Of a stretch of DNA of 21,468 bases, positions 1 through 18,172 are shown one piece after another (positions within the stretch are counted from its first letter, which is position 1; the number at the start of each line of letters is the position of its first letter). The translations under genes were made by a program, and so were the position numbers. This DNA is from a virus (lineage: Duplodnaviria > Heunggongvirae > Uroviricota > Caudoviricetes), in IMG/VR virus record IMGVR_UViG_3300029058_000046; one strand, written 5' to 3'. A model generated the notes under the pieces. It did no database searches. It was given only the letters and a program-made list of their open reading frames with translations, and was not told the origin of the DNA.

Positions 1-2868
1 ACTGCTGAATCCGCTGCGACCCGTGCGGAAGCTGCTGCTGATCGTGCTGAAGAGATTGCCGGTGCAGTTGCGATGGAAGACGCAAGCCTTACAACTAAAG
101 GTGTTGTGAAACTTAGCAGTGCTGTCGACAGCACCAGTGAATCGCTGGCCGCAACGCCAAAAGCAGTTAAAGCAGCCAATGACAATGCGAATAGCAGGGT
201 GCCATCTAACCGAAAAGTTAACGGTAAAGCACTGACTGCGGATATCACATTAACGCCGAAAGATATTGGTACTTTAAATTCAGTAACGATGTCTTTCTCT
301 GGCGGGGCAGGGTGGTTCAAACTGGCTACGGTTACCATGCCACAAGCGAGTTCCATCGTTTACATCGCATTGATTGGTGGCGCTGGTTACAACGTCGGCT
401 CCCCACATCAGGCAGGCATTTCAGAACTGGTTCTACGAGCAGGCAATGGAAACCCCAAAGGGATTACAGGTGCTTTGTGGAAGCGTACAGCTGTCGGATT
501 AACGAATTTCGCCTGGATCAACACATCCGGCGATACATATGATATTTACGTTGAGATTGGCAATTATGCGACTCGTGTAAATATCCATTGGGATTGTACT
601 GCAAATGCGACAGTTTCTATTTATACATCGCCAACATATTCAGCTAGTAAGCCTTCCAGCGTTACCGATGGTGTTGTTTATACGATGTATAGCACACATC
701 AGAAACCGACGCCGTTAGATATTGGAGCACTGCCAACAACCGGAGGAACAGTTTCAGGTCCGTTGTCTGTTACTGGTGGGATCACCGGAACATTAAATGG
801 TAATGCAAGTACAGCAACGAAATTGCAGACGGCAAGATCTATCGGTGGAGTTGGTTTCGACGGTTCTGCAAATATCAACCTTCCAGGTGTAAATACTACG
901 GGTAATCAGAACACCACTGGTAATGCTGCAACTGCTACAAAACTTCAGACGGCAAGAACTATCGGCGGCGTGAGCTTTGATGGTACTGCGAATATTAATT
1001 TGCCAGGTGTTAATACGACTGGTAATCAGAATACAACGGGCAACGCGGCTACTGCTACGAAGTTGCAGACTGCGCGTACTATCAATGGGGTGTCGTTTGA
1101 CGGCTCGGCAAATATTTCCTTGTCGCCAGCAAATATAGGTTGCCCGGCATCTCCTACTGGTTGGTTAACTACAGGAAGTAATGGCGGAGCAATAACAACA
1201 GCACAGTTAGTGACGTTATTGCAAAATAATGGAGCATTTAACACAAAGTCATGGATTGCTCGATGTGCGTGGGCCTATGCCAATAGTGCAACCATACCAA
1301 ATAGTGAAACTGGTTGTGGCGTTATTCCATTGGCAGGAGCTGTTATAGAGGTATTTAATAACGGTAGTAGCTCAAACAATTATACGATCCGTATAACAAC
1401 GGCCACAACGACGAGTGTCTCTGGTGCTCTCACTAATGCGGAGTTTATCTATGTATTTAATGGCACAGATTATTCTCCGGGATGGCGAAGAGTATATAAC
1501 ACGAAAAACAAACCAACAGCCTCTGATGTCGGTGCATTACCTCTTACCGGTGGTACATTATCTGGAGGTTTGACATCTTCTGGCGAGATCATTTCAAAAT
1601 ATGCAAATGGTTTCCGCATTGCTTACGGTAGCTTTGGGTTCTTTATCCGTAATGATGGATCGAACACATATTTCATGCTAACAGCATCAGGAGACACATT
1701 AGGTTCATGGAACGGTTTGCGACCTATTACAATTAATAATACCAGCGGTGCTGTATCAATTGGTAATGGACTAAATGTGACTGGTGGCGTAAATGGTAGT
1801 TTGAACGGTAATGCTTCAACAGCTACGAAGTTGCAAACAGCGAGAAACATCAATGGTGTTAAGTTTGATGGCTCAGGCGATATCAACATTAATACATTGG
1901 TATCTCGTGGCCGAGTTACGGCGTTAAGCGGCTCTACTCAAGGCACTGCTGGCATTCAAATGTACGAGGCGTACAACAATAGCTACCCGACCATGTATGG
2001 CAACGTATTGCACATGAAAGGTGCGAGTGCTGCTGGTGAGGGAGAGTTGCTTATTGGCTGGAGTGGTACGAGCGGTGCACATGCGCCAGTTTTCATTCGC
2101 TCACGAAGAGATAACACAGGTGCGGCATGGTCAGCGTGGGCGCAGGTATATACCGCTAAGGATTCAATCCCTGGTGTGAATACAACTGGTAATCAGAACA
2201 CTACTGGTAATGCCGCAACCGCCACAAAATTGCAGACAGCAAGGAAAATTGCTGGTGTGGCGTTTGATGGCTCTGCCGATATAACTTTGACTGCGGCTAA
2301 CCTTAATGCTTACACGAAAACAGAGGTAACAAACCTTCTAAGTTCCTATGCAAGCAGATCATCACTGACAGGCTATAGTGGCAACCTGGATATTATTGCT
2401 GAAACACTGGTTGTCAAATCAGGCGGTAGTGGAGGGTTTGCTATATGGGATATTGGCACAACTACTAGCGGTGCCAATATGTACATTGATCCAAACCCAG
2501 GTATCAATACAGTTTGGCGTTCAACCTCTTCAAGGCGCTATAAAAAGGATATTGAAACATTACAAGATCGATATGCTGATGAACTTTTGTCATTAAGACC
2601 TGTTTGGTATCGTTCAATTTGTCGAGGTGACCGAAAGGATTGGGGGTATTACGGCCTTATTGCTGAAGAGGTTGGTGAGATTGCCCCGCAATATGTCCAT
2701 TGGCGTGAACCAACAAATAATGATTCTCCAGAAGATATTTCCTCAAATGGTATGGTCGCTGAAGGAGTGATGTATGAGCGTTTGGTTGTACCACTCATTC
2801 ATCATATTCAGCAATTGACCAAAAGGGTTGAGGAGCTTGAAACGAAGTTAAATTCACCTAAAGAATAA
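1..2868 (+). CDS. Phage tail fiber protein, 5' partial (frame 1 is open from base 1; the listed ATG at 73 is internal). C-terminal ~115 aa look like an S74-type intramolecular chaperone/autoproteolysis domain
   Basis: No stop in frame 1 from 1 to 2868. N-terminal segment KGVVKLSSAVDSTSESLAATPKAVKAAND is the conserved motif of phage tail fiber N-terminal domains. Gly/Thr/Asn-rich repeats follow. C-terminus STSSRRYKKDIETLQ...GLIAEEVGEIAP matches the Ser/Lys signature and G-[FL]-IA-[QE]-EV block of self-cleaving fiber chaperone domains (starts near 2521). Confidence 0.85.
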   Translation, partial: TAESAATRAEAAADRAEEIAGAVAMEDASLTTKGVVKLSSAVDSTSESLAATPKAVKAANDNANSRVPSNRKVNGKALTADITLTPKDIGTLNSVTMSFSGGAGWFKLATVTMPQASSIVYIALIGGAGYNVGSPHQAGISELVLRAGNGNPKGITGALWKRTAVGLTNFAWINTSGDTYDIYVEIGNYATRVNIHWDCTANATVSIYTSPTYSASKPSSVTDGVVYTMYSTHQKPTPLDIGALPTTGGTVSGPLSVTGGITGTLNGNASTATKLQTARSIGGVGFDGSANINLPGVNTTGNQNTTGNAATATKLQTARTIGGVSFDGTANINLPGVNTTGNQNTTGNAATATKLQTARTINGVSFDGSANISLSPANIGCPASPTGWLTTGSNGGAITTAQLVTLLQNNGAFNTKSWIARCAWAYANSATIPNSETGCGVIPLAGAVIEVFNNGSSSNNYTIRITTATTTSVSGALTNAEFIYVFNGTDYSPGWRRVYNTKNKPTASDVGALPLTGGTLSGGLTSSGEIISKYANGFRIAYGSFGFFIRNDGSNTYFMLTASGDTLGSWNGLRPITINNTSGAVSIGNGLNVTGGVNGSLNGNASTATKLQTARNINGVKFDGSGDININTLVSRGRVTALSGSTQGTAGIQMYEAYNNSYPTMYGNVLHMKGASAAGEGELLIGWSGTSGAHAPVFIRSRRDNTGAAWSAWAQVYTAKDSIPGVNTTGNQNTTGNAATATKLQTARKIAGVAFDGSADITLTAANLNAYTKTEVTNLLSSYASRSSLTGYSGNLDIIAETLVVKSGGSGGFAIWDIGTTTSGANMYIDPNPGINTVWRSTSSRRYKKDIETLQDRYADELLSLRPVWYRSICRGDRKDWGYYGLIAEEVGEIAPQYVHWREPTNNDSPEDISSNGMVAEGVMYERLVVPLIHHIQQLTKRVEELETKLNSPKE
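795..1127 (+). repeat. Tandem in-frame ~120-nt (40-aa) repeats inside the tail fiber gene; two full units and one partial, with dispersed extra copies near 1798-1880 and 2167-2285
   Basis: Unit NA(A/S)TATKLQTAR(S/T)IGGV(G/S)FDG(S/T)ANINLPGVNTTGNQNTTG recurs at protein level, but the nucleotide copies differ at many synonymous positions. Confidence 0.7.
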
Positions 2869-2880
2869 ACAACTTCAATC

Positions 2881-2903
2881 GGGGCTGGAACTAAACCAGC
2901 CCC
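2881..2903 (+). terminator. Stem-loop just after the tail fiber stop (8-bp GC-rich stem ggggctgg/ccagcccc, 7-nt loop); weak terminator or processing site, no U-tract
   Basis: Perfect inverted repeat read directly; followed by tgcttaaaag rather than a T run. Confidence 0.35.
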
Positions 2904-2928
2904 TGCTTAAAAGTATAAGGATATATTT

Positions 2929-3183
2929 ATGAGCTATGGTGCACAGGTTTGGTCGCCATCAAGACAGGAGATGGTCGATGCGTTGGCCCCTGTTTATTAC
3001 CTCGATTATTTTACTCCCTCTGGTTCAGGAAGTAGAACATATGAGGTTGAGGCGGGATTGGGAATCGACTATTACATAATGGACGTAACCAATGGAAAAT
3101 ACACAAGTCTTACGGTTTCTGGAAATACCATTTCGTGGTCTGGAGCTAGTGGTAATTTAAACATATTGGTTTTTCAAAAATAA
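2929..3183 (+). CDS. Hypothetical protein (84 aa), tail-fiber-associated by position
   Basis: ORF with aagga-like RBS upstream; stop overlaps the next start (TAATG at 3181-3185), suggesting translational coupling. No recognisable motif. Confidence 0.45.
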   Translation: MSYGAQVWSPSRQEMVDALAPVYYLDYFTPSGSGSRTYEVEAGLGIDYYIMDVTNGKYTSLTVSGNTISWSGASGNLNILVFQK

Positions 3184-3791
3184 TGTACGGAAGCAAGATA
3201 TATCGATCTGACGGGAAGGTCTGGATGTCTCCTTCTTTGTCTCCTATCGTTTTTCAGAGAAAGCAGGTTGTTTCTTTGTCCGGCGGGACAGAGTTTAACA
3301 CCCAAATATCTCCAGATCGTTCACCGATGATTTTTGTTGCCTATTCGAAAGCTGTTTCATTAATAGCCAACAGAATAGTGCGTAACAACCAGGTGATTTA
3401 CAGTTTCGGAGGTCAGGGTAGCGACTCTAGTGCCACGATATACGTATTTTCGAAAGGTATAGCCAAAAAAGAAACTTGGGGCATGAGTTTTTTCAATGCA
3501 CAAGGGGAGGAAATCTATAATACGGCAAATATCCCACTTTCATTTACCTTTCTTAATAATACGGAGTGGAACAGCTCTGGAGGGCATGTTTTTGATTACC
3601 CACCAGCGATAATCCCAACATATGCGAATGTGTTCGCTGTTCCAGTACCGGGCGGAGCCATGACAATGGTTTATGGATATGCGGCATATGGAAATACTGT
3701 TAGCTCGATATTCGTAAACCAACTTAATGGCGGCCATAGTTTTAGCGTAAATGGCAGAGTACCGGTAATAAATAGAAATCTGTATAACTGA
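3183..3791 (+). CDS. Hypothetical protein (202 aa), Ser/Gly/Asn-rich; possible fiber-associated or receptor-binding accessory protein
   Basis: Long ORF coupled to the upstream ORF, same strand as the fiber gene. No catalytic motif recognised. Confidence 0.5.
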   Translation: MYGSKIYRSDGKVWMSPSLSPIVFQRKQVVSLSGGTEFNTQISPDRSPMIFVAYSKAVSLIANRIVRNNQVIYSFGGQGSDSSATIYVFSKGIAKKETWGMSFFNAQGEEIYNTANIPLSFTFLNNTEWNSSGGHVFDYPPAIIPTYANVFAVPVPGGAMTMVYGYAAYGNTVSSIFVNQLNGGHSFSVNGRVPVINRNLYN

Positions 3792-3798
3792 TGAGTAA

Positions 3799-4032
3799 AT
3801 GATGAAAAGATTATTTCTAATAATAGCTGTTGTTCTCTCTCTTACTGGCTGCCAGAAATTGCCGACACCTATATGTTACGGTGAGGCTATCATTGGTGGA
3901 CAGGAGACAGTCATACCCATATATGCTGTTAAAAAAGTGAACGACTATACCTTATACAAAGCGGGTAGTATCTATAACTGGCGATGGGTAGGAGTAGGTG
4001 CTTTCTCATCAGTCCGTTGCAATGCTGAATGA
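3799..4032 (+). CDS. Small lipoprotein (77 aa precursor); possibly a Cor/Llp-type superinfection-exclusion lipoprotein
   Basis: N-terminus MMKRLFLIIAVVLSLTGCQK has a signal peptide and lipobox L-T-G-C. Size and position just downstream of fiber genes match Cor/Llp-type exclusion lipoproteins; the function is inferred, not shown. Confidence 0.6.
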   Translation: MMKRLFLIIAVVLSLTGCQKLPTPICYGEAIIGGQETVIPIYAVKKVNDYTLYKAGSIYNWRWVGVGAFSSVRCNAE

Positions 4033-4113
4033 TAGGTAGGTACACACCTACAATAAAAGGGTGAAATGTGATATAAATCCGCCATCCCGATTTGACTTTT
4101 CATGGAGGAAAAC

Positions 4114-4437
4114 ATGTCGAACGAGATGGCGAGCGTTACAACAGAGCAAGTTGAGCGTATTGCCGCGATCGTTGCTCGGGAGGTTGTTGGCAAATTAGGT
4201 AAAGAGCTACGTGAAGAAATTGGCCAGGAGGTCAATGATCAGCTGAAAACCTACTTTGGTGATATGACCCCGGCGCAACATAGTATTCAACACTCCAATC
4301 TGGACAAACTCCTTAACCGGTTAGATTCCATCTCCAGTGGGTTCTTTGGCGGCATTGTTTCTAAAATAACGTCGTTCATTATTACTGCACTGCTTTTGGG
4401 GTTAGCCGCGTATGGCGTAAAAAATGGACTGCAATAA
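4114..4437 (+). CDS. Holin-like small membrane protein (candidate first gene of a lysis cassette)
   Basis: GGAGG Shine-Dalgarno 6 nt before the ATG at 4114 (the track's ATG at 4102 has no RBS). Hydrophilic N-terminal part, one C-terminal hydrophobic segment (ITSFIITALLLGLAAYGV). Sits immediately upstream of the endolysin candidate. Confidence 0.45.
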   Translation: MSNEMASVTTEQVERIAAIVAREVVGKLGKELREEIGQEVNDQLKTYFGDMTPAQHSIQHSNLDKLLNRLDSISSGFFGGIVSKITSFIITALLLGLAAYGVKNGLQ

Positions 4438-4450
4438 CAGGAGATCAAGG

Positions 4451-5143
4451 ATGAAGACTCCGAGAGGCATTCGTAATAATAACCCCGGTAATCTTGATAA
4501 AGGATCACCGTGGCAAGGTCTGGTTGCGAATCCAGACGAACCGCGCTTTTGCACGTTTAAAGACCCTGTTTGGGGGATTCGTGCGCTGGCGGTGACTCTA
4601 ATTACCTACCACGACAAACGTCGCGCAAAAGACGGCTCAAGTATCGATACCATTCGTGAAGTTATTGAACGTTGGGCACCGCCGAATGAAAACAACACTG
4701 ACGCCTACATTAATGAGGTGTCTAAAGCCGTTGGTGTAACCGCAGACATGATCATCGATCTGCATGATTACGACATCCTTCGACCTTTGGTTGAGGCAAT
4801 CATTCGCCACGAGAATGGTCGAGGTCCACTAAAAACGCTGAACACCTGGTATGCGGCAGAAGTTATTGAGGAAGGTCTGCGTCGAGCCGGCGTCGTTAAG
4901 CCGGTGAAAACCGTGAAGGCTGTTCCTGTAACTAAAGAAACCGCAGGCGCAACTGTCACAGCAGGTATTGGTCTGGCGCAGCTTGCCGATGTTATGCCGC
5001 AGGTTTCCGCTGCTATGGATAAAGCACAAGGTCATATCTCTAGCGGGGATACAGTACGCATCATCTTCGGTATTGCCACTATTGTTGTGGCAGGATTCAT
5101 TGCCTGGTCGCAGGTAAGAAAACACCAGAAAGGGATGGTCTAA
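4451..5143 (+). CDS. Putative endolysin / peptidoglycan hydrolase with a C-terminal hydrophobic anchor
   Basis: AGGAG RBS 8 nt before the ATG at 4451. Conserved-looking N-terminal motif GIRNNNPGNL. C-terminal hydrophobic helix IIFGIATIVVAGFIAW. Flanked by a holin-like gene and a spanin-like pair. The enzymatic family is not assigned. Confidence 0.45.
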   Translation: MKTPRGIRNNNPGNLDKGSPWQGLVANPDEPRFCTFKDPVWGIRALAVTLITYHDKRRAKDGSSIDTIREVIERWAPPNENNTDAYINEVSKAVGVTADMIIDLHDYDILRPLVEAIIRHENGRGPLKTLNTWYAAEVIEEGLRRAGVVKPVKTVKAVPVTKETAGATVTAGIGLAQLADVMPQVSAAMDKAQGHISSGDTVRIIFGIATIVVAGFIAWSQVRKHQKGMV

Positions 5144-5144
5144 T

Positions 5145-5396
5145 ATGCTAGGCAGCCTGATGACAAAGCTAAAAGTTGCTTTGATTACGCTGGCTGCCGT
5201 TCTTTTCGTTCTTGTCGGCGCTTACACGATGGGCGGAAATGCGGCGCGACGAGCAATGGAAGAGAAGGCAAAACAGGAAGACAGAAAACGACTTCAAAGC
5301 ACAGTGGATGTCAAAAATGAAACGGTTAATGAAGTGCGGCAAAAAGATGCCTCTGGTGTTCATCGCGAGCTGTTTGATAAATGGGTGCGTGATTAA
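5145..5396 (+). CDS. Rz-like inner-membrane spanin (i-spanin) candidate
   Basis: 83 aa with N-terminal transmembrane segment (LKVALITLAAVLFVLVGAY) followed by a charged coiled-coil-like region. Start is 1 nt after the endolysin stop. Confidence 0.55.
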   Translation: MLGSLMTKLKVALITLAAVLFVLVGAYTMGGNAARRAMEEKAKQEDRKRLQSTVDVKNETVNEVRQKDASGVHRELFDKWVRD

Positions 5397-5544
5397 GACG
5401 CAGGCTCCAGGCGTGCTATTCTGCGATGCTGCAAATCCTATTTATGTGAGTAGAGAGGATTTTATGACTGAGGAAACGGAGCGACAGTTGCTTATCCACA
5501 ATACGATAGGTGAAAGGCTGTGTGAGTGGGGGCACCTGAACTGA
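5317..5544 (+). CDS. Rz1-like outer-membrane lipoprotein spanin (o-spanin) candidate, starting inside the Rz-like gene in the +1 frame and running past its end
   Basis: Out-of-frame ORF overlapping the 3' part of 5145-5396. Product has a short signal peptide and lipobox (MKRLMKCGKKMPLVFIAS-C). Start codon uncertain (5308, 5317 or 5329). Confidence 0.4.
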   Translation: MKRLMKCGKKMPLVFIASCLINGCVIKTQAPGVLFCDAANPIYVSREDFMTEETERQLLIHNTIGERLCEWGHLN

Positions 5545-5768
5545 GTCGATGATTGATGAGTGGTCTCAGTTTACCTTTTATCCTAAAGATGGCATCTTCA
5601 CTCATATACACGCCTGTTCACTCAAGCTCATGTTGAATCATTTAGTAATTTGATGTAGATTTATTAGGCATCCACGTAAGTGGGCACATACAGGCTACGC
5701 ATCCTCGTAGCCTTCAACCCCGAGAGGGGTGCCGCAATGACACTTGTGTTAACGGCTAAGGTGGACAC

Positions 5769-6152
5769 ATGCTGAACGAGAAACGTTCTATACAAACTAT
5801 TCGCGATTGCACGAGTATTATCGAGACTCATGTGCTGAATCAGCACAAGCTTGAAGTACGTAAGCTCAATAATGACGCTATTGAACCGGAAGACTCACGC
5901 TTCATCGTTACCTTCAAAGACGATGTTGAGCGCGCTGGTGCAAGCGTGAAGCCATTAGCTGAAGCAATTTACCTGAATGGTCGTGTTCGTTTTGTAGTCA
6001 AGCCAGCTAAACAGTACCCTGAGCTGTCTCGTTTTATCGAGGCTTTTTCGGAGGTTATTGAACATTCTATTCGCCGCTTCTTACGCAATCATGGTAGCAT
6101 TGTCAGCACGGTTAAGGCTGATGATTCTGCTACAAAATGGCTCCTACACTAG
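5769..6152 (+). CDS. Hypothetical protein (127 aa)
   Basis: ATG preceded by AAGGTGG Shine-Dalgarno; 3' end overlaps the next ORF by 16 nt. No recognisable motif. Confidence 0.55.
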   Translation: MLNEKRSIQTIRDCTSIIETHVLNQHKLEVRKLNNDAIEPEDSRFIVTFKDDVERAGASVKPLAEAIYLNGRVRFVVKPAKQYPELSRFIEAFSEVIEHSIRRFLRNHGSIVSTVKADDSATKWLLH

Positions 6153-6889
6153 ATAGCGCATATTCAAAAGATCTAAGCGAGTTTCCTCATAAAGGGGAGA
6201 CTCGTGTTGTTCGTTTTGGCTTTCTTATCAATGAAGCCTCCCTCTATAAAATCTCAGAAATTGAAATCATTGAACCAGAAGATGACATTTGCCTGTATGT
6301 CTCTATGGAACTTGTAGGTGCGCGCGACCAAGGCGACCTGAGCGAATTCATCTTAGATCGAGCGGATGAAGATGCCCCTGAAGAAGAGATTATCAAAGAG
6401 GTGCTCCAGTCCGGGCTTCTGGACGAAAACAAAAATACGATCGCTGGTAGGATAGCTCTGCGTGAATATAGTTTTGTTGAAGACGGTAATGAGATCGAAT
6501 GTTACCAGGTAGCCGGTGTCGAAACTGTCAGAGAGCGTCGTCAGCGAGGATTGTGTCACCGTACCTATCTCTTTCTTCTTCATTGGTATGAGCATTTAGT
6601 CTGCGACGATACACAAACCATTCCTGGTGCTAAGATCTGGGCAGGGCCTCTCATGCGAACCGGCGATGTGCGTATATACAATGCCAAAACAGAAACGTTC
6701 GAGGATGTGTTAGGCGAGTACGGGATGGGGAAAGAAACCGGATTTTTGCCGTGGAACAGAGGATTGTTGCTTGATGCAGAGTTAAGCTCTTGGCTCCCAA
6801 ACAAAGTGCAAGTTAACGTTCAGAAATTTATCGTACTTATCATCTCCCGCAAAACAAGAACTCCAGTAGGTTTATACCTAAAAGATTAA
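6137..6889 (+). CDS. Hypothetical protein (250 aa), acidic, no recognised domain
   Basis: Long ORF overlapping the preceding gene, followed directly by a strong intrinsic terminator. Confidence 0.6.
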   Translation: MAPTLDSAYSKDLSEFPHKGETRVVRFGFLINEASLYKISEIEIIEPEDDICLYVSMELVGARDQGDLSEFILDRADEDAPEEEIIKEVLQSGLLDENKNTIAGRIALREYSFVEDGNEIECYQVAGVETVRERRQRGLCHRTYLFLLHWYEHLVCDDTQTIPGAKIWAGPLMRTGDVRIYNAKTETFEDVLGEYGMGKETGFLPWNRGLLLDAELSSWLPNKVQVNVQKFIVLIISRKTRTPVGLYLKD

Positions 6890-6893
6890 AAAT

Positions 6894-6920
6894 CAGGCGA
6901 CTTTGGTCGCCTTTTTTGTT
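6894..6920 (+). terminator. Rho-independent terminator
   Basis: caggcgac-tttg-gtcgcc stem-loop followed by TTTTTTGTT, immediately after the stop at 6889. Confidence 0.75.
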
Positions 6921-7015
6921 AACAGCCATTGATTCTCGCCTAAAAATTCTAAGGCAGCACCTACCATTTAACCTTTACACCACAGCCGTAGGCATTTAGG
7001 CTATATCACATATAA

Positions 7016-7031
7016 GAAAACAAGTTGTTTC
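7016..7031. promoter_or_regulatory. Palindromic motif AGAAAACAAGTTGTTT upstream of the ParA gene; candidate operator
   Basis: Nearly identical copy (AGAAAACAATTTGTTT) at 9946-9961 upstream of the helicase gene. Both are inverted repeats AACAA-N-TTGTT, 34-50 nt upstream of start codons. Confidence 0.3.
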
Positions 7032-7065
7032 AGACGATAATTATATACGCAAAGGGAACTCTCCA

Positions 7066-7734
7066 ATGACCAAGATCTTTGTGGTTGGCGGCACAAAGGG
7101 CGGGCCTGGCAAATCCACCGTTGCCCAGCAAATTGCCGTTTGCCTGAAAGTCAAAAAGAAGAAGAAGGTTTATATCACCGATATAGATATTCAGCGCACG
7201 ACAACGAGCTGGTGTGAAGACCGTCGACAGAACGAAGACCTTGAGCTGATTCCTTTTGCATACGTTCAGGATGACATCATTAAGCACCTAAAATCGCTTC
7301 AGGGTAGAGCTGAGTATGTAGTGGTAGATGCTGGTGGCTTTGACTCCGAAATTCAGCGACAAGCGATGCTGATGGCCGACGTTATCATTATCCCGCTTCG
7401 TCCTAAGCGTCGTGATTTGAAATCTCTGCGTGACATCGATCCTATTATCGACAATGTTCGTAATGTAAACGATAAAGTGAAGGTCCGCGCGGTCATGAAC
7501 CAGTGCCCGGCTTTGCCATCACAAGTGTCTCGCATTCTGGCGGCTAAAGAGATTGTTGAGACGTTTGGCATCGAGTCTGCGCCAGTCAATCTATATAACC
7601 GCAACGTCTATGATGATGCGGAAGAGTCTGGTCGTTCTATCTTTGAAATGACCGGTAGCGAGCGCGACAAAAAGGCGGAAGCCGAGTTTGAAGAATTTGT
7701 AGATTATCTGTTGAGTCTGGAGGAAGAAGAATAA
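7066..7734 (+). CDS. parA: ParA/Soj-family partition ATPase (small, type Ib-like)
   Basis: Deviant Walker A box GGTKGGPGKST at the N-terminus, ~220 aa, acidic C-terminus. Followed by a small overlapping partner gene. Confidence 0.85.
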   Translation: MTKIFVVGGTKGGPGKSTVAQQIAVCLKVKKKKKVYITDIDIQRTTTSWCEDRRQNEDLELIPFAYVQDDIIKHLKSLQGRAEYVVVDAGGFDSEIQRQAMLMADVIIIPLRPKRRDLKSLRDIDPIIDNVRNVNDKVKVRAVMNQCPALPSQVSRILAAKEIVETFGIESAPVNLYNRNVYDDAEESGRSIFEMTGSERDKKAEAEFEEFVDYLLSLEEEE

Positions 7735-8093
7735 TGTCCATGAAAATGGGTGACCTAGCAAAGCGCAAAGAGCCTGATGCACCGGCTAAGAACACAACTC
7801 CTTTGCGCCAACCAGTCAGACCACAGGGACGCCCGACTCGTGGCAAAGAGAAAATTAAAAGCCGCACAATGTCACTGGAGGACGAATACTTCGAACTGCT
7901 GGAGATGATGAAGTTCATCCCTCGCTTCGAGAAGTTCACTCGTTCTGACGTGATTCGAGCAGCCATTTTCCATCTGGCAGAGAAGTCACCGCAGGAAATC
8001 GAGGACATCGTGAAATTGAATGAGGCGATCACCGCTGCCGATGTCACGATGCGTACCGATGAAATCAAACGAGAGTTGATGAAGAAAGGTTAA
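7734..8093 (+). CDS. Small partition partner protein (ParG/ParB-like centromere-binding candidate)
   Basis: 119 aa; start overlaps the ParA stop (TAATG). Basic, probably disordered N-terminus and a C-terminal region (MSLEDEYFELLEMMK...) compatible with a ribbon-helix-helix type Ib partner. Assignment is by context. Confidence 0.45.
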   Translation: MSMKMGDLAKRKEPDAPAKNTTPLRQPVRPQGRPTRGKEKIKSRTMSLEDEYFELLEMMKFIPRFEKFTRSDVIRAAIFHLAEKSPQEIEDIVKLNEAITAADVTMRTDEIKRELMKKG

Positions 8094-8098
8094 AAATC

Positions 8099-8129
8099 AT
8101 GCATTGGCGCGTACATTGCGCCAATGCAT
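8099..8129. terminator. Palindrome between convergent genes; candidate bidirectional terminator
   Basis: atgcattggcgc-gtacatt-gcgccaatgcat: 12-bp perfect stem, 7-nt loop, between the + strand gene ending 8093 and the - strand gene ending 8146. No clear U-tract. Confidence 0.5.
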
Positions 8130-8145
8130 AACTACAGTGTCAGCT

Positions 8146-8913
8146 TTATGCCGCGCTAACACTATGTTCAGTCCTAACCACCCCAACCTTCACAAAAGGG
8201 CTACCGTAGCTTGGTGGCTTCTTGATTAATTTGCCTACATACAGTTTTCTAATATGCTCATCGGCTATTCTGCCAACAAATTCATAACGTTTTGTGTCGG
8301 GGCCAAGAGCTATATCCCTTGTAAAGTACTGCTGAGAACCGGCTTTGACCCAGCATTCAATCTGATAAACTTCCATTATCAGCCCACCATATGTAGCGTA
8401 GGCATATTTGAGATTCTCGTCTCTTGGAACCTTTGCCCATACGCCACGCGTAGCCTCATATAATGCCAGAGCGGACATTCCTGACTTGTAGGTGCTGTTT
8501 AGCAGGAAGGCAAGACCGGCGTGCTCAGGAGCAATTTCAGTTTCCTCTTGCAGCACTAAGTGATGGTAGGCGTCCAGTGATATTCTGCCCATCATGGAAC
8601 CACTTCCTCGTACCTTATTCGTAAGCTCTCCGACCCCCATAAGGTCGATGCATGTCGCCTCAACAAGTTTGGCTGTGGTTTCATCCATACCATGACGAAG
8701 TATATCTATGCCTAATTTTTTATTAGCCAAAAGTTCTTTGATCCGCATGGATTTGGGAGAGTCATCGGGATACTTGATGTGATCGAGACAACGAGTCGAT
8801 TTGCCTTTTCCTATGTAAAACGGTCTTTTCATCTTGTCTTCTGTATCATAGAGACAGTAAACATAGTATTTAGCCTTATCCAATGATCTCGCGTATACCG
8901 ATAAATCGTCCAT
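8146..8913 (-). CDS. GIY-YIG nuclease-domain protein (255 aa) with an unassigned ~160-aa C-terminal domain
   Basis: N-terminal YVYCLYD...RPFYIGKGK...R..H...E pattern matches the GIY-YIG catalytic motif. Only sizeable antisense gene in the partition/replication region. Confidence 0.7.
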   Translation of the reverse strand: MDDLSVYARSLDKAKYYVYCLYDTEDKMKRPFYIGKGKSTRCLDHIKYPDDSPKSMRIKELLANKKLGIDILRHGMDETTAKLVEATCIDLMGVGELTNKVRGSGSMMGRISLDAYHHLVLQEETEIAPEHAGLAFLLNSTYKSGMSALALYEATRGVWAKVPRDENLKYAYATYGGLIMEVYQIECWVKAGSQQYFTRDIALGPDTKRYEFVGRIADEHIRKLYVGKLIKKPPSYGSPFVKVGVVRTEHSVSAA

Positions 8914-9024
8914 TATTGCATCTCTTTGCTACTGACTAATGCGTTCTATTTTACACATAAGTTTTTAATCAATTTAACAGGCTCAAAGTGTAGAGCTTCT
9001 GGGCGTCTAAGACGACAAGTTATG

Positions 9025-9079
9025 CCTGCTTCTGTATATATAAATAATAAGTAACTTATTAAATATATACGGAAGCAGG
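9025..9079. promoter_or_regulatory. ~55-bp AT-rich near-perfect palindrome between the divergent GIY-YIG gene and the replication module; candidate operator or origin element
   Basis: cctgcttctgtatatat ... atatatacggaagcagg: 17-bp arms with one G-T mismatch, around an internally palindromic AT-rich core (aataagtaacttatt). Confidence 0.35.
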
Positions 9080-9195
9080 TCTTTTAAAAGACACCACCAG
9101 AACAACTCCCTTCCGTTTCCACTTCCAAAAACTGCCACCAGTCGCTATCATCCGCTCATTGTGATAAGTAAGTAACTACCTACCAGGTGAGCCAC

Positions 9196-9936
9196 ATGAG
9201 CCAAATCTTTTTCGATACCATCGACAACGACCAGTACGACTTCATGACAGAGTGGAATACCGCTGTTATGGACAAGTGGGTCGCTGAAAACATTGGTTTG
9301 TCGCGCTGTAAAGACGAGGCTGAACTCTTCGAGACGAAGTGGTTTGATTACCGCGACATGCATCCTCTCATGGCCACCTGTCTTTTTACGGAGGCATACA
9401 AACGTCAGTACTCAAATATCATGCTGACGCACGGTCGCGAACACTTTGAAACAGCTCCGTTCACCACCGGGTTAAAACGCCTGCCTTATCAGGAGTTGTC
9501 GACTGCCAATAAAACGTCTCTATGGAAAGCACGCCAGTTTGCTGACCGCTATTGCTGCTCATACGACTACTTTATCTCCACCGTTCTTTCCGCAGCTGCA
9601 CGACGGCTGTGGGACAAGCTGCCGCGCCCACAGCATTTATGGCAGCCAGAGCTGGTTGAGATATTCGAAGAGAAATTAGCCAGACGCGCAACAACCCGTC
9701 TGGATGACTCTCTAGTTAGCTTTAAGCATATGGGAGACATGCAGTTCAACCCGATCCAGGAAAGCTATTTTGAGTGGATTCTGGAGCGTTTACGCACCAT
9801 CCCCCGCAGCAAGCGCATACGCGCAATTTTCTCCGCTATCTGGCTAATGGAAATCGTTCCAGAGCGCCTTATTTCCGCCCACTTTCCAGAAGAACTGGAA
9901 GAAGCACGGCGGTTTATTGATCCCCTATCTAATTAA
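9196..9936 (+). CDS. Hypothetical protein, first gene of the replication module (possible initiator or helicase loader, by position only)
   Basis: AGGTGA RBS 5 nt before the ATG at 9196 (the track's start at 9187 is GTG). Directly precedes the helicase gene. No motif recognised. Confidence 0.55.
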   Translation: MSQIFFDTIDNDQYDFMTEWNTAVMDKWVAENIGLSRCKDEAELFETKWFDYRDMHPLMATCLFTEAYKRQYSNIMLTHGREHFETAPFTTGLKRLPYQELSTANKTSLWKARQFADRYCCSYDYFISTVLSAAARRLWDKLPRPQHLWQPELVEIFEEKLARRATTRLDDSLVSFKHMGDMQFNPIQESYFEWILERLRTIPRSKRIRAIFSAIWLMEIVPERLISAHFPEELEEARRFIDPLSN

Positions 9937-9945
9937 CTAATACTA

Positions 9946-9961
9946 GAAAACAATTTGTTTA
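9946..9961. promoter_or_regulatory. Second copy of the AGAAAACAA(G/T)TTGTTT palindromic motif, upstream of the helicase gene
   Basis: AGAAAACAATTTGTTT, 19 nt before the ATG at 9980; matches the motif at 7016-7031. Confidence 0.3.
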
Positions 9962-9979
9962 AAAAACAAAGGAAAGCAC

Positions 9980-11320
9980 ATGACCGAACTTTGCCATACA
10001 GGACGCGGGCTGTCCGAAGAGTTTGATGAAGATTTCCAGAACAGACTGACGGCATATTTTTGTCGTGATCACGAGTTTCTTACTCGTGCGGGAGATCTGG
10101 TTGTGCCTAGCCAATTTGCCAATGCGGCCAATGCCATATTGGTTAATATGGTTTCGGGCTATTACCGTATGTACAAGAGCGCGCCTTCTTCATCTGCGAT
10201 TCTGGATATGCTTAAGCGTGCGAAACGCGATAAGACCATCCGTGAGGAACTCTTCCCGGATGTTGTTGCTGCGTTTAAGCGCATCCTTGCAGAAAAATTG
10301 TCTGATACCTCGTACATGGTTGACCAGGTATCCACATTCGCAAAAAGTGTAGCGTTTGATGATGCTCTGATTAAAGCTGCTGAACTGAAAGAGAAGGGCG
10401 ACTTTCAGGGGGCGATGGCAATCATGGCCAAGGTTCAGCAGATAGGCTCGAACGAAGCGACCGGAATCTATGACTACTACACCTCCGCAAGTGAGCGATT
10501 GAAAGCGCGTGAATATGAGGCTTCAGAGGAGTATGTGCCAAACAGCATTACAACTGGACTCCCTCTGCTTGATAGATTGCTGTACCAAAAAGGCTGGGCA
10601 AAGCGCGAAATGGTGCTCTTCATGGGTTTTGCTAAATCCGGTAAATCGACCGCAATGGGTGAGTTTTCCATAAACGCTACGCTTGCTGGCTACAATGTTC
10701 TGTATCTCTCGCTGGAGGTTCACACCACCATTTTGTCCGACCGTTTTGATGCAAGATTGTCGGAGACGGAAATGTCCAAGCTGGTGGAACGGCGCGATGA
10801 AGTTCATCGCAAGTTGGCAGAGTTGGGAGCCACGAAGGGGATTGGTAGTTTGTGGGTTGTTGAGCGTCCGTCAGGAAGTATGTCACCGGCAGATCTGGAC
10901 CGTATGCTTAACAGTATGAAAGCCAATGGCATGGTGCCTGACATGGTTGTTGTCGACTACGCAGATTTGATGCGTGCCAGTTATGACCTTCGTGATGATC
11001 GCGCCAACATTCGTAGTATCTACACCGATTTACGTGCTCTTTATGACAAGCATAACGTTGCTGGTATCACGGCGTCGCAAACAAACCGTGAAGGTGGCGC
11101 GTCAGAAGTTGCCACAATGATGCACGCTGCCGACAACATCGAAAAAGTACGTATTGCTGACCTGGTAATAACGATCAACAAAACCGAAGAAGAAGAAGCG
11201 AAAGGAGAGGCTCGTCTCTACTTTGCTGGTTCGCGTAACCAGCAGGGAGGGATCAGCATTCGCGTTAAACAAAACCTCGAACAAATGCGCTTCATTGAGC
11301 GAATCTTAGACGTTACCTAA
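9980..11320 (+). CDS. DnaB-family replicative DNA helicase
   Basis: Walker A GFAKSGKST, SLE motif (LYLSLEV), Walker B-like VVVDYADLM and SQTNRE motif, in the order typical of DnaB/T7 gp4-type RecA-fold helicases. AAGGA RBS upstream. Confidence 0.85.
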   Translation: MTELCHTGRGLSEEFDEDFQNRLTAYFCRDHEFLTRAGDLVVPSQFANAANAILVNMVSGYYRMYKSAPSSSAILDMLKRAKRDKTIREELFPDVVAAFKRILAEKLSDTSYMVDQVSTFAKSVAFDDALIKAAELKEKGDFQGAMAIMAKVQQIGSNEATGIYDYYTSASERLKAREYEASEEYVPNSITTGLPLLDRLLYQKGWAKREMVLFMGFAKSGKSTAMGEFSINATLAGYNVLYLSLEVHTTILSDRFDARLSETEMSKLVERRDEVHRKLAELGATKGIGSLWVVERPSGSMSPADLDRMLNSMKANGMVPDMVVVDYADLMRASYDLRDDRANIRSIYTDLRALYDKHNVAGITASQTNREGGASEVATMMHAADNIEKVRIADLVITINKTEEEEAKGEARLYFAGSRNQQGGISIRVKQNLEQMRFIERILDVT

Positions 11321-11327
11321 AAAATAA

Positions 11328-11348
11328 GCGTGGAGAACACCTCCACGC
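11328..11348 (+). other. Perfect 8-bp hairpin (gcgtggag-aacac-ctccacgc) between the helicase stop and the primase gene
   Basis: Inverted repeat read directly. It contains the GTG that the ORF track uses as the primase start (11330), so that start is unlikely to be real. No U-tract. Confidence 0.35.
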
Positions 11349-11401
11349 TTGATTCATTGGTGAAACAACTTTTCTTTTGCCAAACCACAAAAGAAAAACA
11401 C

Positions 11402-12583
11402 ATGAGCCTTTATGTTATATCAACATTTAGGTTGGTCACAATATTGCCTGTTAAAAGTGGAATTATCGTGAGCGAGCTGAAAGAGCTAATTACCGAATTA
11501 GATTTTGAACAATGGTTGGATACTGAAGGTATCGTTTATCGACGTGGAGGCGTGAGTACTCGCGGTCGTGAAGTGAATATCAAGGAGTGTCCGGTATGCG
11601 GCAGCTCCAACTGGAAGGTATATTTCAATCTGACCAGTGGCGTCGGTAAATGCTTCGCTGGTGATCATCCCGAAGAGATTCAGTTCAATAAGCTGGTCTT
11701 CCTCAAGCACTACAGCGGTAAATCACGACGACAGTTCGAGGAATATGTGCAGAACGCTCTTCTTTCCCAGGGGTGGGCACCAAAGAAAGAAGAGATAGTG
11801 CTTGCAAGCACAGTCGAGTTAGAGGGACCAGTTGCACTCCCTCGTCATTACGATCTTCCTATAGATGGCCATCTTCCAGACTATCTGGTTGAACGAAATA
11901 TATCGCCTGAAATGGCAAAGTATTTTGACCTACGATACTGCGTCGAAGGCAAGCACGCTTATGTAGATCCGTATACAGATCAGGTTAAAGGACAGATTTT
12001 CGATATGCGAATACTGATACCGGTTTACGATCTGGATGGGGTAATGAAGACATTTCAAGGACGAGACATTACCGGTACAGCAGAACGCCGCTACCTCTTT
12101 CCTATGCAGCTTCCAGCTTCAGGTAAGTTTCTCTACAACGGCCACAATGCAGTCGGCAAACAGACTGTAGTTGTCTGTGAGGGGGCGTTCGATGTTATGG
12201 GGGTCAAACGAGCTATTTTTGACGAAGAAACATTACGCGATTACGTGGAACCAATAGGAACGTTCGGGATGCATCTATCTGGTAACACCACTCAGGATGC
12301 AGAAGATCAGTTGGGCGCGTTCCTGACGCTCAAGGCGCGTGGATTACGTAATGTGATCATGATGTGGGATAGTGAAAAGCAAGCTATACGAAACACTATG
12401 GCCGCAGCCAGGCGACTGACCAGTATCGGTCTTAATGTGAAAATTGCATGTTTGGGCGAGGAAGGACTCGACCCCGGCGATGCGACCCCGGGGCAGATTA
12501 TCAAAGCCTACTATTGCGCAAAACCTTACTCACGACAGCTTGAACTTTTAAGCAAGGTAAAAGGCATAGCAGCATTAGTTTGA
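11402..12583 (+). CDS. DNA primase (zinc-ribbon plus TOPRIM domain)
   Basis: Zinc-binding motif CPVCGSS...GKCFAGDH and TOPRIM-like acidic motifs (VVVCEGAFDVMGV, EEGLDPGD). Start uncertain: ATG 11402 or GTG 11468; 11330 sits inside a hairpin. Confidence 0.75.
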   Translation: MSLYVISTFRLVTILPVKSGIIVSELKELITELDFEQWLDTEGIVYRRGGVSTRGREVNIKECPVCGSSNWKVYFNLTSGVGKCFAGDHPEEIQFNKLVFLKHYSGKSRRQFEEYVQNALLSQGWAPKKEEIVLASTVELEGPVALPRHYDLPIDGHLPDYLVERNISPEMAKYFDLRYCVEGKHAYVDPYTDQVKGQIFDMRILIPVYDLDGVMKTFQGRDITGTAERRYLFPMQLPASGKFLYNGHNAVGKQTVVVCEGAFDVMGVKRAIFDEETLRDYVEPIGTFGMHLSGNTTQDAEDQLGAFLTLKARGLRNVIMMWDSEKQAIRNTMAAARRLTSIGLNVKIACLGEEGLDPGDATPGQIIKAYYCAKPYSRQLELLSKVKGIAALV

Positions 12584-13720
12584 ACCAGTATTAGTCACGT
12601 ACACATTGACCGAAAATGATTTAACTTCTGTGTTGAAGTTGTCAGTCATTACCGCGAGGTAGGCATTCTTGGTATCTCTGAATTGCTTCAGTATGATTTG
12701 AACGTTATCGGTGCAAACAAACGAGGTAGCCAGATTGCCTCCTTTCTCTGAAAAATCCTTCAGGAAGGTGCAGTCAACTTTGCCATCATTAGCGGTGAAG
12801 GTAGCATCATCACCCTGCCAGGTAAATGTAGCGTTAACGCCCTTATCAATGGATTTAGCAATAAGTCGCTGGGTGGCGGATTTTGTTTTGGCTTTGGAAG
12901 CCGGCGCTCGATATTTGCCGCTTTCTTTCAGTTCTGCAATGTAATCACAGCCATTTTTATCTTCTTTATCACAAGCAGCCTGATAAAGCTCAGCTGCTTT
13001 TTTATAGTCTTTTTTAACCCCTTCACCATACTCATACATAATGCCAAGATTTGTCATGGCATCGGCGTTTCCGAGTTCAGCAGCTTTTTTATACCACTTA
13101 ATTGCTTCGGCATCGTTGCGTTTAACACCTAAACCGTCATCGTATAAGGTGCCTAATGCGAACATGCCATCTGAACTACCTTGATCCGCCGCTTTTTTGT
13201 AATAAGTAAAAGCTTTTTTATAACTCTTTTGTACACCTTTACCATATTGGTAATACGCACCAAGAAGGTAGCTAGCTTTAACATACCCGGCATCAGAGGC
13301 TAGTTTGAAGTATTTAATGGCGAGCGCATGATCTACTTTACCAAGCATCCCCTTTTGATAAATAGCACCAAGATTGTTATAGGCTCTACCTTCACGAGCA
13401 TCTCCCGCAAGTTTGTAGTACTCAACTGCTTTATTTAAGTCTTTATCTACACCCTCGCCAAATGTGTACATAACCCCAAGTGCATAATATGCTACTTTGT
13501 CTCCCTTTTCTGCAGCGAGATCAATCCACTTCTTGGCCTCAACTACATCCTTATCAAAACCATTGATACCATCAAAATAATTTGTCCCTAACTCACTTTG
13601 TGCTGCGGTATCCCCTGCGGTAGCGGCTTCTATCAGCGTTTGTTTATTGTCTGCGTTAACGAATCCAGAGCTAAAAAGCAAAGTTAATGCCAGCAACGAT
13701 GAAGATTTTATGTATTTCAT
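12575..13720 (-). CDS. Secreted Sel1-like repeat protein with a ~130-aa non-repeat Cys-containing C-terminal domain
   Basis: Sec signal peptide MKYIKSSSLLALTLLFSSGFVNA/DN, then at least six ~36-aa repeats of the form A..YY..G.MY..GEGV.KD..KA..WYKKAA typical of Sel1 repeats. 3' end overlaps the primase 3' end by 9 bp. Start taken at the ATG for MKYIK; the track's TTG at 13765 is less likely. Confidence 0.75.
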   Translation of the reverse strand: MKYIKSSSLLALTLLFSSGFVNADNKQTLIEAATAGDTAAQSELGTNYFDGINGFDKDVVEAKKWIDLAAEKGDKVAYYALGVMYTFGEGVDKDLNKAVEYYKLAGDAREGRAYNNLGAIYQKGMLGKVDHALAIKYFKLASDAGYVKASYLLGAYYQYGKGVQKSYKKAFTYYKKAADQGSSDGMFALGTLYDDGLGVKRNDAEAIKWYKKAAELGNADAMTNLGIMYEYGEGVKKDYKKAAELYQAACDKEDKNGCDYIAELKESGKYRAPASKAKTKSATQRLIAKSIDKGVNATFTWQGDDATFTANDGKVDCTFLKDFSEKGGNLATSFVCTDNVQIILKQFRDTKNAYLAVMTDNFNTEVKSFSVNVYVTNTGSN

Positions 13721-13953
13721 ATTTTTTGTTCTGTTGATATAGGATGAACAGTTTAGACGCGGCAAGTGTCAAGTGTGCGAAAAATGGTACTTAAATTTAG
13801 TTAATATGTCAGCTTTGTTGATTTAGTTTATGGTCGGTAAAGTTACTAGGAAACTAATAACCATAAGAAATAGTACGCCATTTAATTATTGTGGCACTGC
13901 TCGTGTTTTGATTAACTAATACCTGCGATAAATATAAATAAAGGGAAGCCAAC

Positions 13954-14367
13954 ATGAGCAAAAATAAGCTGATTTTAACAGGAGCTTTATTGTCTTTGTT
14001 TGCTTTAGTGGGGTGTAAGCCTACAGACGAGAAGGCTATTGCTCTGGGCCAACAAGCAATTGCGGATGATATGAAAGATCCCACGTCGGTGATGTTTAGG
14101 AAAGATAAGTTTGTCAGGACTGATCATGACGATGGGAGTGTGACAGGCTTTGTGTGCGGAGAATTGAACGCCAAAAATGGCTTTGGTGCATACGTGGGCT
14201 ATCACTCATATGTTGTTGAACTCGAAATGAAGCCAAAGGGCATGTTTTCGAAAGGGGTGGTATACAAAATCCTATCGAAGTCGTTGGCACCTAATGATCC
14301 TCATGACTTACAGCGTTATAAGCAGGTCTACAGAAAGATGTGCAACAGTGAGGCTGTAGCTCATTAA
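13954..14367 (+). CDS. Lipoprotein (137 aa precursor), divergent from the Sel1-repeat gene
   Basis: Signal peptide with lipobox L-V-G-C (MSKNKLILTGALLSLFALVGCKP). AAGGGAAG RBS upstream. Confidence 0.65.
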   Translation: MSKNKLILTGALLSLFALVGCKPTDEKAIALGQQAIADDMKDPTSVMFRKDKFVRTDHDDGSVTGFVCGELNAKNGFGAYVGYHSYVVELEMKPKGMFSKGVVYKILSKSLAPNDPHDLQRYKQVYRKMCNSEAVAH

Positions 14368-14373
14368 TGGTGA

Positions 14374-14400
14374 ATGCCGGGCAGACTATAAGCCCGGCAT
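14374..14400 (+). terminator. Stem-loop after the lipoprotein gene (9-bp stem atgccgggc/gcccggcat); candidate terminator
   Basis: Perfect inverted repeat 7 nt after the stop codon; weak U-tract. Confidence 0.4.
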
Positions 14401-14492
14401 CTTCGTATAGGGAACTATTGCGCCTAAAATGATAAGTAGATACATACTTAGTTTTTTGTAAGAATACTTTCATCTGTTAGCTAGGAGTTGGT

Positions 14493-15269
14493 ATGAAAGA
14501 CGAAATTCAGAAATTGGCCTGTGACATCATTGATAAAACAGGTTTAGAAATCAGCGAGGGCAGTCGACTAGACATCATTGGAAAGGCCGTCAATACAGCA
14601 ATGAATCATATCGCTGCTCGTATGGACGAGATCCCGCTACCAGGGTTGCCTTATCTGAAGGTTGAGTTACACGTATGGGGCGAACCTTCTTGTGCACGGC
14701 GTTCTGCATTAGTTGTTTTTATTAGCAAAGAAAACCCGCTCAGTCTTAAAGTGCAGGTTGGAGCATGGCTTGATGGCAGAGTGATCTACACAAATACCGT
14801 TTTTTGTCTTTCAAACGACGAAACTATTGAAGCGGCCATTCAAGAAGCAGTTCTAGCAATGCGCAGCAGCGGTTTGATGAAGAATAACTACGAAGAGTAC
14901 TTGCGTTCGATAAGTGGTGAAAAGACATTATCTCTGAAAGCAGATTTCGTTACCCCGAAAAATCTGTTGGAAGTTTTGATTAATAAAGGGGCTAATAGTG
15001 CCGTAAATGTAATCAGAGAGAGTGAATACGCGTCTCTTTGGGATATGTGCAAAAGCCAGTTGGATCTTGTGCATATCGTTGTTGATGCGGGGAAGGCTTG
15101 TGATGGCGTAATGGCGGAATTTGCTGGGAAGATGGTCAGGATTGCTAACGAATTACCGATGATTAAGCAAGAGGCTAAATCATACGCCACCAATCATGTC
15201 ACAGAGCTTCTTGCCCCTTATCGCTTAGAAAGCGATCAGCGCAAGATGATTAGCTGGGGAAGTTGGTAA
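14493..15269 (+). CDS. Hypothetical protein (258 aa)
   Basis: ATG preceded by AGGAG-like RBS (ctaggagttggtATG). No recognisable motif. Confidence 0.55.
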   Translation: MKDEIQKLACDIIDKTGLEISEGSRLDIIGKAVNTAMNHIAARMDEIPLPGLPYLKVELHVWGEPSCARRSALVVFISKENPLSLKVQVGAWLDGRVIYTNTVFCLSNDETIEAAIQEAVLAMRSSGLMKNNYEEYLRSISGEKTLSLKADFVTPKNLLEVLINKGANSAVNVIRESEYASLWDMCKSQLDLVHIVVDAGKACDGVMAEFAGKMVRIANELPMIKQEAKSYATNHVTELLAPYRLESDQRKMISWGSW

Positions 15270-15335
15270 GCTCTCTGTGTGTCGTTTTTACGCAAATAAT
15301 GATAGGTAAGCACAAGATTATTTCTGGCGGTAATT

Positions 15336-18164: not shown

Positions 18165-18172
18165 CGATGAAG

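Follow-up and report, generated by a model that had tools for sequence, protein, structure and literature searches.

Locus and gene model

The 21,468-nucleotide (nt) stretch of viral DNA IMGVR_UViG_3300029058_000046 (Caudoviricetes), referred to below at its full length as the window, begins with the 3' part of a side tail fibre gene (1..2868, plus strand), and these 2868 nt comprise the C-terminal 955 codons plus the stop codon. The region is very probably the distal two-thirds of a modular, self-chaperoned side tail fibre gene of an SSU5/pHCM2-type siphoviral phage-plasmid of Escherichia coli. At the level of sequence, its identity as a side tail fibre is established by gene position, fibre domains and matches in the PDB. 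An earlier sequence-only reading had likewise called it a tail fibre, and the call was borne out by fibre domains above cut-off, by many tail-fibre PHROG matches and by the position downstream of a J-like gene.

Nucleotides 2-19356 of the window were 100% identical to the E. coli plasmid pM160133_p3 (NZ_CP022167.1, 113 kb, non-mobilizable), the first base being excepted, and dozens of other E. coli plasmids of ~110 kb showed 96-99% identity to the window. Over nt 2-2350 the fibre region was 95.6% identical to Escherichia phage Cyrano (OV696614), which is the pLF82 phage-plasmid of E. coli LF82 and is described in the literature as SSU5-like, siphoviral and virion-producing. In pM160133_p3 the fibre gene is preceded, in this order, by the genes for a minor tail protein L, a C40 peptidase, a tail assembly protein and a 1570-amino-acid (aa) J-like tail protein. 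The same gene order was found in Cyrano, with the fibre gene directly after the J-like gene.

The open reading frame (ORF) of 931 aa at 73-2868, which had been listed and taken as the gene, owes its start to truncation at the window edge; the complete gene has 4158 nt and encodes 1385 aa. Frame 1 is open from nt 1: nt 1-72, ahead of its first ATG, read TAESAATRAEAAADRAEEIAGAVA-M and contain no stop codon. The fibre gene of pM160133_p3 is annotated in RefSeq as WP_250191956.1 (1385 aa, 4158 nt), and the ATG at nt 73 is internal, corresponding to Met455 of the full protein. Residue n of the window ORF is thus residue n+454 of the full-length protein, and window ORF residues are given below unless otherwise indicated. 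In agreement with this numbering, the window ORF was aligned to positions 455-1385 of the phrog_3299 profile (1385 positions). The 454 residues missing from the listed ORF consist of a conserved N-terminal domain (MWYREGTITF...) and an Ala/Ser-rich segment of ~300 aa, and no Pfam family matched the first 460 aa of the full-length protein.

That the real product is the 931-aa ORF from the ATG at nt 73, as in several public records, is exceedingly unlikely. The coding sequence (CDS) is indeed annotated from exactly this ATG in the three related records L005 (GenBank UGF03255.1), L006 and L007 (RefSeq WP_226428207.1 and WP_149556601.1, respectively; L007 is NZ_CP079892.1), where these internal-Met starts lie at 2072, 2072 and 4072, respectively. 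However, the 454 further codons are open and conserved upstream in pM160133_p3, Cyrano and L005, all of which start with MWYREGTITF... right after the J-like gene. The deposited annotation of Cyrano also gives a full CDS of 1341 aa, in line with the 1385 aa given by RefSeq for pM160133_p3 and with the 1385-position family phrog_3299. An antisense 'hypothetical protein' annotated in L005 (1252-1935) opposite the Ala/Ser-rich coding region is probably spurious, and the internal-Met starts together with this antisense ORF probably represent a systematic annotation artefact in public records. In the window, short ORFs of 72-88 aa were seen inside or antisense to the fibre gene at 1026-1244 (minus), 1623-1889 (minus), 312-542 (plus) and 2378-2596 (plus), and they are most likely non-coding because of their overlap with a strongly supported coding frame.

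Domain architecture of the fibre

From the N- to the C-terminus, the part of the fibre in the window was resolved into the Phage_fiber_2 motif, knob 1, repeat units R1-R3, a Mu-S'-like knob, a gp34-type trimerisation domain, R4, knob 3, R5, the tip and the S74 domain, all on the plus strand. The Phage_fiber_2 motif (85..207, residues 5-45) was matched by PF03406 with 67.4 bits, above the cut-off, and aligns with residues 111-156 of the Mu tail fibre protein S. Globular knob 1 (280..738, about residues 70-222, the boundaries being approximate) ends in a KPTPLDIGALP linker; it was invariant across five relatives in the protein alignment and gave no Pfam or PDB sequence match. The tandem array R1-R3 (763..1122), with three units of 120 nt or 40 aa, is followed by globular knob 2 (1123..1500, about residues 351-476), which is Mu S/S'-like: the region of residues 336-496 was aligned with residues 186-334 of PDB entry 8ju3 at a domain i-Evalue of 9.5e-28 (phmmer).

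The Gp34_trimer-type trimerisation domain (1429..1734, residues 453-554) was matched by PF21446 with 102 bits, above the cut-off, and its PDB matches were Mu S (5yvq) and T4 gp34 (4uxe and 5nxf). Downstream of it lie repeat unit R4 (1771..1890), globular knob 3 (1891..2169), which L007 lacks and for which Cyrano and L005 have another knob, and repeat unit R5 (2170..2289). The distal tip of the predicted mature fibre (2290..2526, residues 740-818) ends in R816-S817-T818. Its sequence is variable among S74-bearing homologues, and by analogy with T5 pb1 it is a candidate for the receptor-binding end. The gene is closed by a Peptidase_S74 domain (2527..2868, residues 819-931 plus the stop codon), a predicted intramolecular chaperone and auto-processing domain.

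The five 40-aa repeat units

The motif ATKLQTAR occurs at residues 248, 288, 328, 584 and 717 (nt 814, 934, 1054, 1822 and 2221, respectively). A repeat search returned a five-copy family with spacings of 120, 120, 768 and 399 nt, and Tandem Repeats Finder reported a period-120 array at 810-1116 with a score of 312. The in-register units are R1 (763-882), R2 (883-1002), R3 (1003-1122), R4 (1771-1890) and R5 (2170-2289), all on the plus strand, with the consensus GNAxTATKLQTAR-x-I-x-GV-x-FDGS-x-x-I. The sequence-only reading had placed about five repeats in tandem at 795-1127 and dispersed near 1800 and 2170, and these coordinates were correct. A hidden Markov model (HMM) built from the five units found exactly five copies in the 1385-aa protein, at 77-83 bits each, and no others. 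A low-complexity coincidence, which had been named as a possible source of the repeats, was ruled out by these scores, with no spurious copies even in the Ala/Ser-rich N-terminus.

The repeat region was modelled as a monomer with AlphaFold2 (36 homologues), with a mean predicted local distance difference test score (pLDDT) of 74.6 and a predicted template modelling score (pTM) of 0.35. At the matching spot of each tandem unit (query residues 25-32, 65-72 and 105-112) a beta-hairpin was predicted with a pLDDT of ~80-85; its core is the R-x-I-x-G-V-x-F-D-G stretch of the unit, and the linkers were extended and of lower confidence. Each 40-aa unit would thus contribute one beta-hairpin and the units would connect the knobs, as trimeric shaft segments between them according to the model. 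Homologues of the unit were found in 581 protein clusters, including those from Salmonella, Enterobacter, Acinetobacter and marine metagenomes (TARA ocean), and most of them have no Pfam domain on record. The literature search by repeat motif sequence gave nothing useful.

Among solved structures, a likeness to the C-terminal trimeric spike of phage L Dec (6e3c) was found in the motif NA-x-TA-x-KL-x-TAR-x-I...FDGSAN-(I/V). The Dec match is weak (E 0.083, phmmer against the PDB), covers one copy, carries a 7-aa insertion and belongs to a capsid protein, not a fibre.

Synonymous divergence between the units

Pairwise identity between the units was 55-93% at the protein level and 54-78% at the DNA level, R2 and R3 being 93% and 72% identical, respectively, which agrees with the earlier description of repeats kept at the protein level and diverged at the nucleotide level. 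Codon pairs encoding the same residue differed in 163 of 276 cases, against 178 expected for random draws from the codon usage of the gene. The NG86 estimate of synonymous divergence (dS) was at least 1.15 or undefined (saturated) for all ten unit pairs. In 5000 codon-draw simulations per pair, the DNA identity and the longest identical run (8-14 nt) fell inside the random distribution and were never unusually low, and the probability of a simulated run length at or below the observed one was 0.55-0.99 across the ten pairs. Synonymous sites between the units are saturated, with no divergence beyond saturation.

The positional counterparts of the units in four related fibres showed 82-100% DNA identity per unit, against 53-78% to the other four units, with those units of L007 that belong to a different module as exceptions. 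HdSG1 and phi456 are among the other E. coli phages in which blocks spanning R2-R3 showed 86% nt identity. Since positional counterparts are closer than sister units, the units had diverged before these fibres diverged or were exchanged, and this comparison of sequences supports old duplications as the explanation of the synonymous divergence. The units would be ancient paralogous shaft segments, in which purifying selection holds the protein while synonymous sites drift to saturation.

The sequence-only reading had offered two explanations, old duplications and selection against recombination between repeats, and the former was upheld by the 82-100% identity of the counterparts while the latter gained no support, the simulations showing no excess divergence. 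A recoding selected to prevent RecA-mediated or slippage deletions between repeats is therefore quite unlikely. It would fit the shortness of in-register identity, as no two units share an identical run of more than 14 nt; runs of 14 nt or less are short for homologous recombination, given minimal processing segments. It would also fit a deletion of one unit in L005 at the longest near-identical stretch of R1 and R2 (20 nt with one mismatch), which makes recombination between units a real hazard. L005 lacks exactly 40 residues (120 nt) by way of an R1/R2 chimera: its first unit is identical to the R1 allele of L006 over positions 1-83 and matches R2 with one mismatch over positions 76-120, and the crossover lies within the 20-nt stretch CAGACGGCAAGA(T/A)CTATCGG. 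Recombination or slippage between units thus does happen. However, the identities and runs are never below the expectation for random synonymous codons, several unit pairs being slightly more similar than random; the codon differences amount to 92% of the random expectation, not more; and the sequence of each unit is conserved between phages, as expected for old paralogues.

The S74 domain and the predicted cleavage site

PF13884 matched residues 819-875 over profile positions 1-57 of 58 with 28.1 bits, the gathering cut-off being 22. Among 43 aligned homologues, the most distant at 25% identity, S819, S820, K824, R842-P843-V844, Y860-G861-L862, A864-E865-E866, P872 and Y901 were invariant. 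A scan of 1.84 billion representative proteins returned 3135 with an S74 domain at E<=0.001, and in most of the best 150 of these 3135 the domain is located at the C-terminus or close to it, as it is here, where it forms the last 113 residues. S819, S820 and K824 were present in all of 144 representatives, which share at most 50% identity with each other; R816 was present in 139 of the 144, and R816, S817 and T818 each in at least 137. The codons of Ser819 and Lys824 are 2527-2529 and 2542-2544, respectively, within the motif R816-S817-T818|S819-S820-x-x-Y823-K824.

The only direct PDB sequence match for the S74 domain was the T5-like LtfA 8hqz (E 0.02), in which TSGIEYKKD was aligned to TSSRRYKKD. 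Because this match is weak, a fold comparison was needed. The AlphaFold2 monomer model of the domain had a pLDDT of ~90, and Foldseek with this model returned the MyRF ICA 7dc3 (E 3e-5, probability 1.0), GA-1 3gud and the K1F endosialidase 3gw6, with no other fold below E 1. The S74-like C-terminal domain proposed earlier is thus supported by PF13884 above the cut-off, by the Ser/Lys dyad (S819 and K824 in 144 of 144) and by the chaperone-domain fold, self-cleavage itself being a deduction from these.

Conservation of the Ser/Lys motif, the scissile bond of T5 pb1 and the LtfA alignment together point to a cut between Thr818 and Ser819, that is at nt 2526|2527 or T1272|S1273 of the full-length protein (with K1278), which would release 113 aa. 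The cut had been put near residue 817 (nt ~2521) with the loss of ~115 aa; this was essentially right, and the refined site is two residues off. By homology with the K1F endosialidase and T5 pb1, three S74 domains would trimerise first and act as a template on which the trimeric tip upstream folds. With the tip correctly folded, Lys824 would activate Ser819 and the Thr818-Ser819 bond would be cleaved, after which the chaperone would leave and the receptor-binding end would be exposed. A separate tail fibre assembly gene would not be needed, and none follows the fibre gene.

Alternatively, the S74 domain could be a relic that no longer cleaves and remains part of the fibre, or the gene could be decaying in a defective phage-plasmid. 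The activity of the domain in this element is a prediction from sequence, insertion sequence (IS) insertions occur in the fibre region of related plasmids (H24), and an IS3-family element lies at the right end of the window. Against both versions, however, the ORF is intact, the catalytic Ser/Lys pair and the other family-invariant residues (RPV, YGLxAEE, P and Y) are all present, many plasmids carry the complete fibre gene with at least 96% conservation, and the related element Cyrano produces virions; either version is very unlikely.

Module exchange among related fibres

Exchange of modules was followed by protein alignment of five alleles together with blastn end-points. Records L003, L004, L006 and L007 showed at least 95.9% identity up to nt 996-1001, the end of R2, beyond which L006 and L007 carry another knob of greater length. 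Cyrano and L005 can be aligned with the window up to nt 1892 (the end of R4); a different knob 3 follows in both, the match resumes at nt 2167 (the start of R5), and it is finally lost at nt 2350, 60 nt after R5. In L007 an R4-type unit is joined directly to an R5-type unit without knob 3. By these comparisons the units appear to mark module boundaries, with knob or tip switches in or next to R2, R4 and R5. Since every unit is conserved with its positional counterpart, the units would also be places of knob and tip exchange between phages. Such swaps fit long-established ideas on mosaic tail fibre genes.

The S74-type tip and three small genes downstream form an exchangeable cassette (2351..4030, plus strand), since the match to Cyrano and L005 breaks off at nt 2350 and is found again from nt 4031. 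In these two, a stretch of ~509 nt takes the place of 2351-4030 and codes for another tip, with a resemblance to knob 2 (37% identity). The three genes, between the fibre and the lysis genes at 2929-4032, encode proteins of 84 aa (phrog_557, labelled 'outer membrane protein'), 202 aa (phrog_425, labelled 'membrane associated protein') and 77 aa (phrog_1119, the superinfection-exclusion lipoprotein Cor). Cyrano and L005 lack all three; in L006 and L007 the annotation includes the genes of 84 aa and 202 aa. The presence of Cor presumably hints that the central J-like fibre may use FhuA.

In L007 a Mu-S/lambda-Stf-type tip is followed by an annotated tail fibre assembly (tfa) gene, and 28 nt after this gene lies a 75-nt S74 remnant at 7597-7671 of NZ_CP079892.1, corresponding to window 2794-2868. 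It encodes LIHHIQQLTKRVEELETKLNSPKE*, the exact end of the S74 domain (last 24 codons plus stop), with 98.8% identity onward. The remnant behind the tfa gene is direct evidence that in this lineage an S74-type tip was replaced by a chaperone-dependent (Tfa) tip.

It is tempting, though rather doubtful, to see the units as maintained in-register recombination adapters, in which positional identity would permit knob and tip swaps between genomes and divergence between units would prevent collapse of the gene.

Comparison with known fibres

Among the closest known systems is T5 pb1, in which the scissile bond is Thr1263-Ser1264, the serine is activated by Lys1269, and the S1264A exchange abolishes cleavage and leaves an uncleaved protein that no longer competes with the phage for the receptor (PMC4690869). 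Like pb1, the present protein is a siphoviral side fibre of about 1390 aa that ends in an S74 intramolecular chaperone of ~113-133 aa, has a Thr|Ser bond with Lys at +5 (T1263|S1264...K1269 in pb1, T1272|S1273...K1278 here) and has no separate chaperone gene. The two resemble each other in sequence only within the S74 domain (E 0.02 to 8hqz). In contrast to pb1, the shaft here consists of Mu/P1/T4-type modules, and the tip is much shorter, with ~79 aa beyond the last repeat, and bears no relation to the bullet domain of pb1. The K1F endosialidase (3GW6), the GA-1 neck appendage (3GUD) and the MyRF ICA (7DC3) share the fold and the Ser/Lys auto-processing motif, but their cargo is a tailspike, an appendage and a eukaryotic transcription factor, respectively, whereas here it is a modular fibre, and identity is 10-22%.

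The Phage_fiber_2 motif, the Mu-S'-like knob and the gp34-type trimerisation domain are shared with the Mu S/S', P1 S and lambda Stf fibres. The Cyrano record calls its orthologue a P1 S homologue, and the near-identical shaft in L007 bears a Mu-S-type tip and tfa. The allele in the window differs from the Tfa/U-type fibres of Mu, P1 and lambda in that it ends in S74 and lacks a tfa gene. No invertible segment was noted among the window ORFs, no search having been aimed at one.

For the tip-plus-S74 module, the closest relatives from cultured phages are in the Drexlerviridae (T1-like, for example PeterMerian, also named Bas05), at 47-57% identity. PeterMerian (L008, MZ501101.1, 2129-5082) encodes the module as a gene in its own right (231 aa), which is preceded by a lateral fibre gene of 655 aa and an ORF of 92 aa, whereas here the module is fused to the fibre. 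The 231-aa gene product of PeterMerian has a coiled-coil-like N-terminal segment and is annotated as 'putative lateral tail fiber chaperone'. Inference of the receptor from the cultured-phage relatives was rejected, as the best tip match is only 57% identical and uncharacterised.

Neighbouring genes and right end of the window

The fibre gene is followed by two small genes, cor, a holin-like gene, an endolysin gene and an Rz-like gene. The lysis cassette (4102-5544) comprises the 111-aa holin-like protein (phrog_5093, with a hydrophobic C-terminus), the 239-aa endolysin and the Rz-like spanin (phrog_1275). The endolysin was assigned to phrog_873, had no Pfam match and has an apparently hydrophobic C-terminal segment. 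After the lysis genes the window carries genes for ParA, a DnaB-type helicase, a primase and a ligase, and by its sequence the backbone is of phage-plasmid type.

No intrinsic terminator was returned by a scan of the gap from the fibre stop (2868) to the following gene (2929). A GC-rich hairpin, GGGGCTGG...CCAGCCCC, without a T run, was seen by eye at about 2881-2903.

Identity to the closest plasmids stops at nt 19356. To the right of this point lie an IS3-family transposase pair on the minus strand, at 20232-20570 (HTH_Tnp_1) and 19387-20205 (rve), and a 245-aa tyrosine-integrase ORF at 20581-21318. From the sequence, nt 19357-21468 looks like an insertion at the right end of the window.

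Evaluation and implications

Several points weigh against parts of this interpretation. The AlphaFold2 models are monomeric and leave the tip (pLDDT 45-60) and the linkers of the repeats (about 60) poorly resolved. Foldseek with the monomer model of the repeats returned no solved analogue, and the 40-aa unit had no Pfam match at E<=0.1 and no NCBIfam match; its shaft role is argued from the periodic hairpin prediction and the weak Dec match (E 0.083). The folding-sensor residues of T5 (Arg1250 and Asp1239, contributed by a neighbouring chain) have no mapped counterpart here, and cleavage, trimerisation and receptor binding are all predictions by analogy. As to module exchange, one junction (nt 1373, in L006) lies inside knob 2 and not at a repeat, and BLAST end-points gravitate to conserved segments, so that the end-points suggest, but do not prove, an enrichment of junctions at repeats.

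Taken as a whole, the feature is real, standard and well explained, and it is not new. What the analysis adds is a corrected gene boundary, an exact predicted processing site, the recognition of the synonymous divergence as saturation and documented swaps at the repeats, and no new biological question is opened by them. The corrected gene model concerns a fibre common in E. coli phage-plasmids and is of modest practical value. The 40-aa fibre repeat may be a candidate for a curated repeat family, and a precise predicted maturation site helps expression or engineering of this receptor-binding protein. The natural series of swaps, with knob exchange, loss of a unit and passage from an S74 to a Tfa tip, shows where such fibres can be recombined. 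If the units do serve as recombination adapters, the same shaft would thereby have been switched between S74 self-chaperoned and Tfa-dependent tips, leaving a 75-nt fossil.

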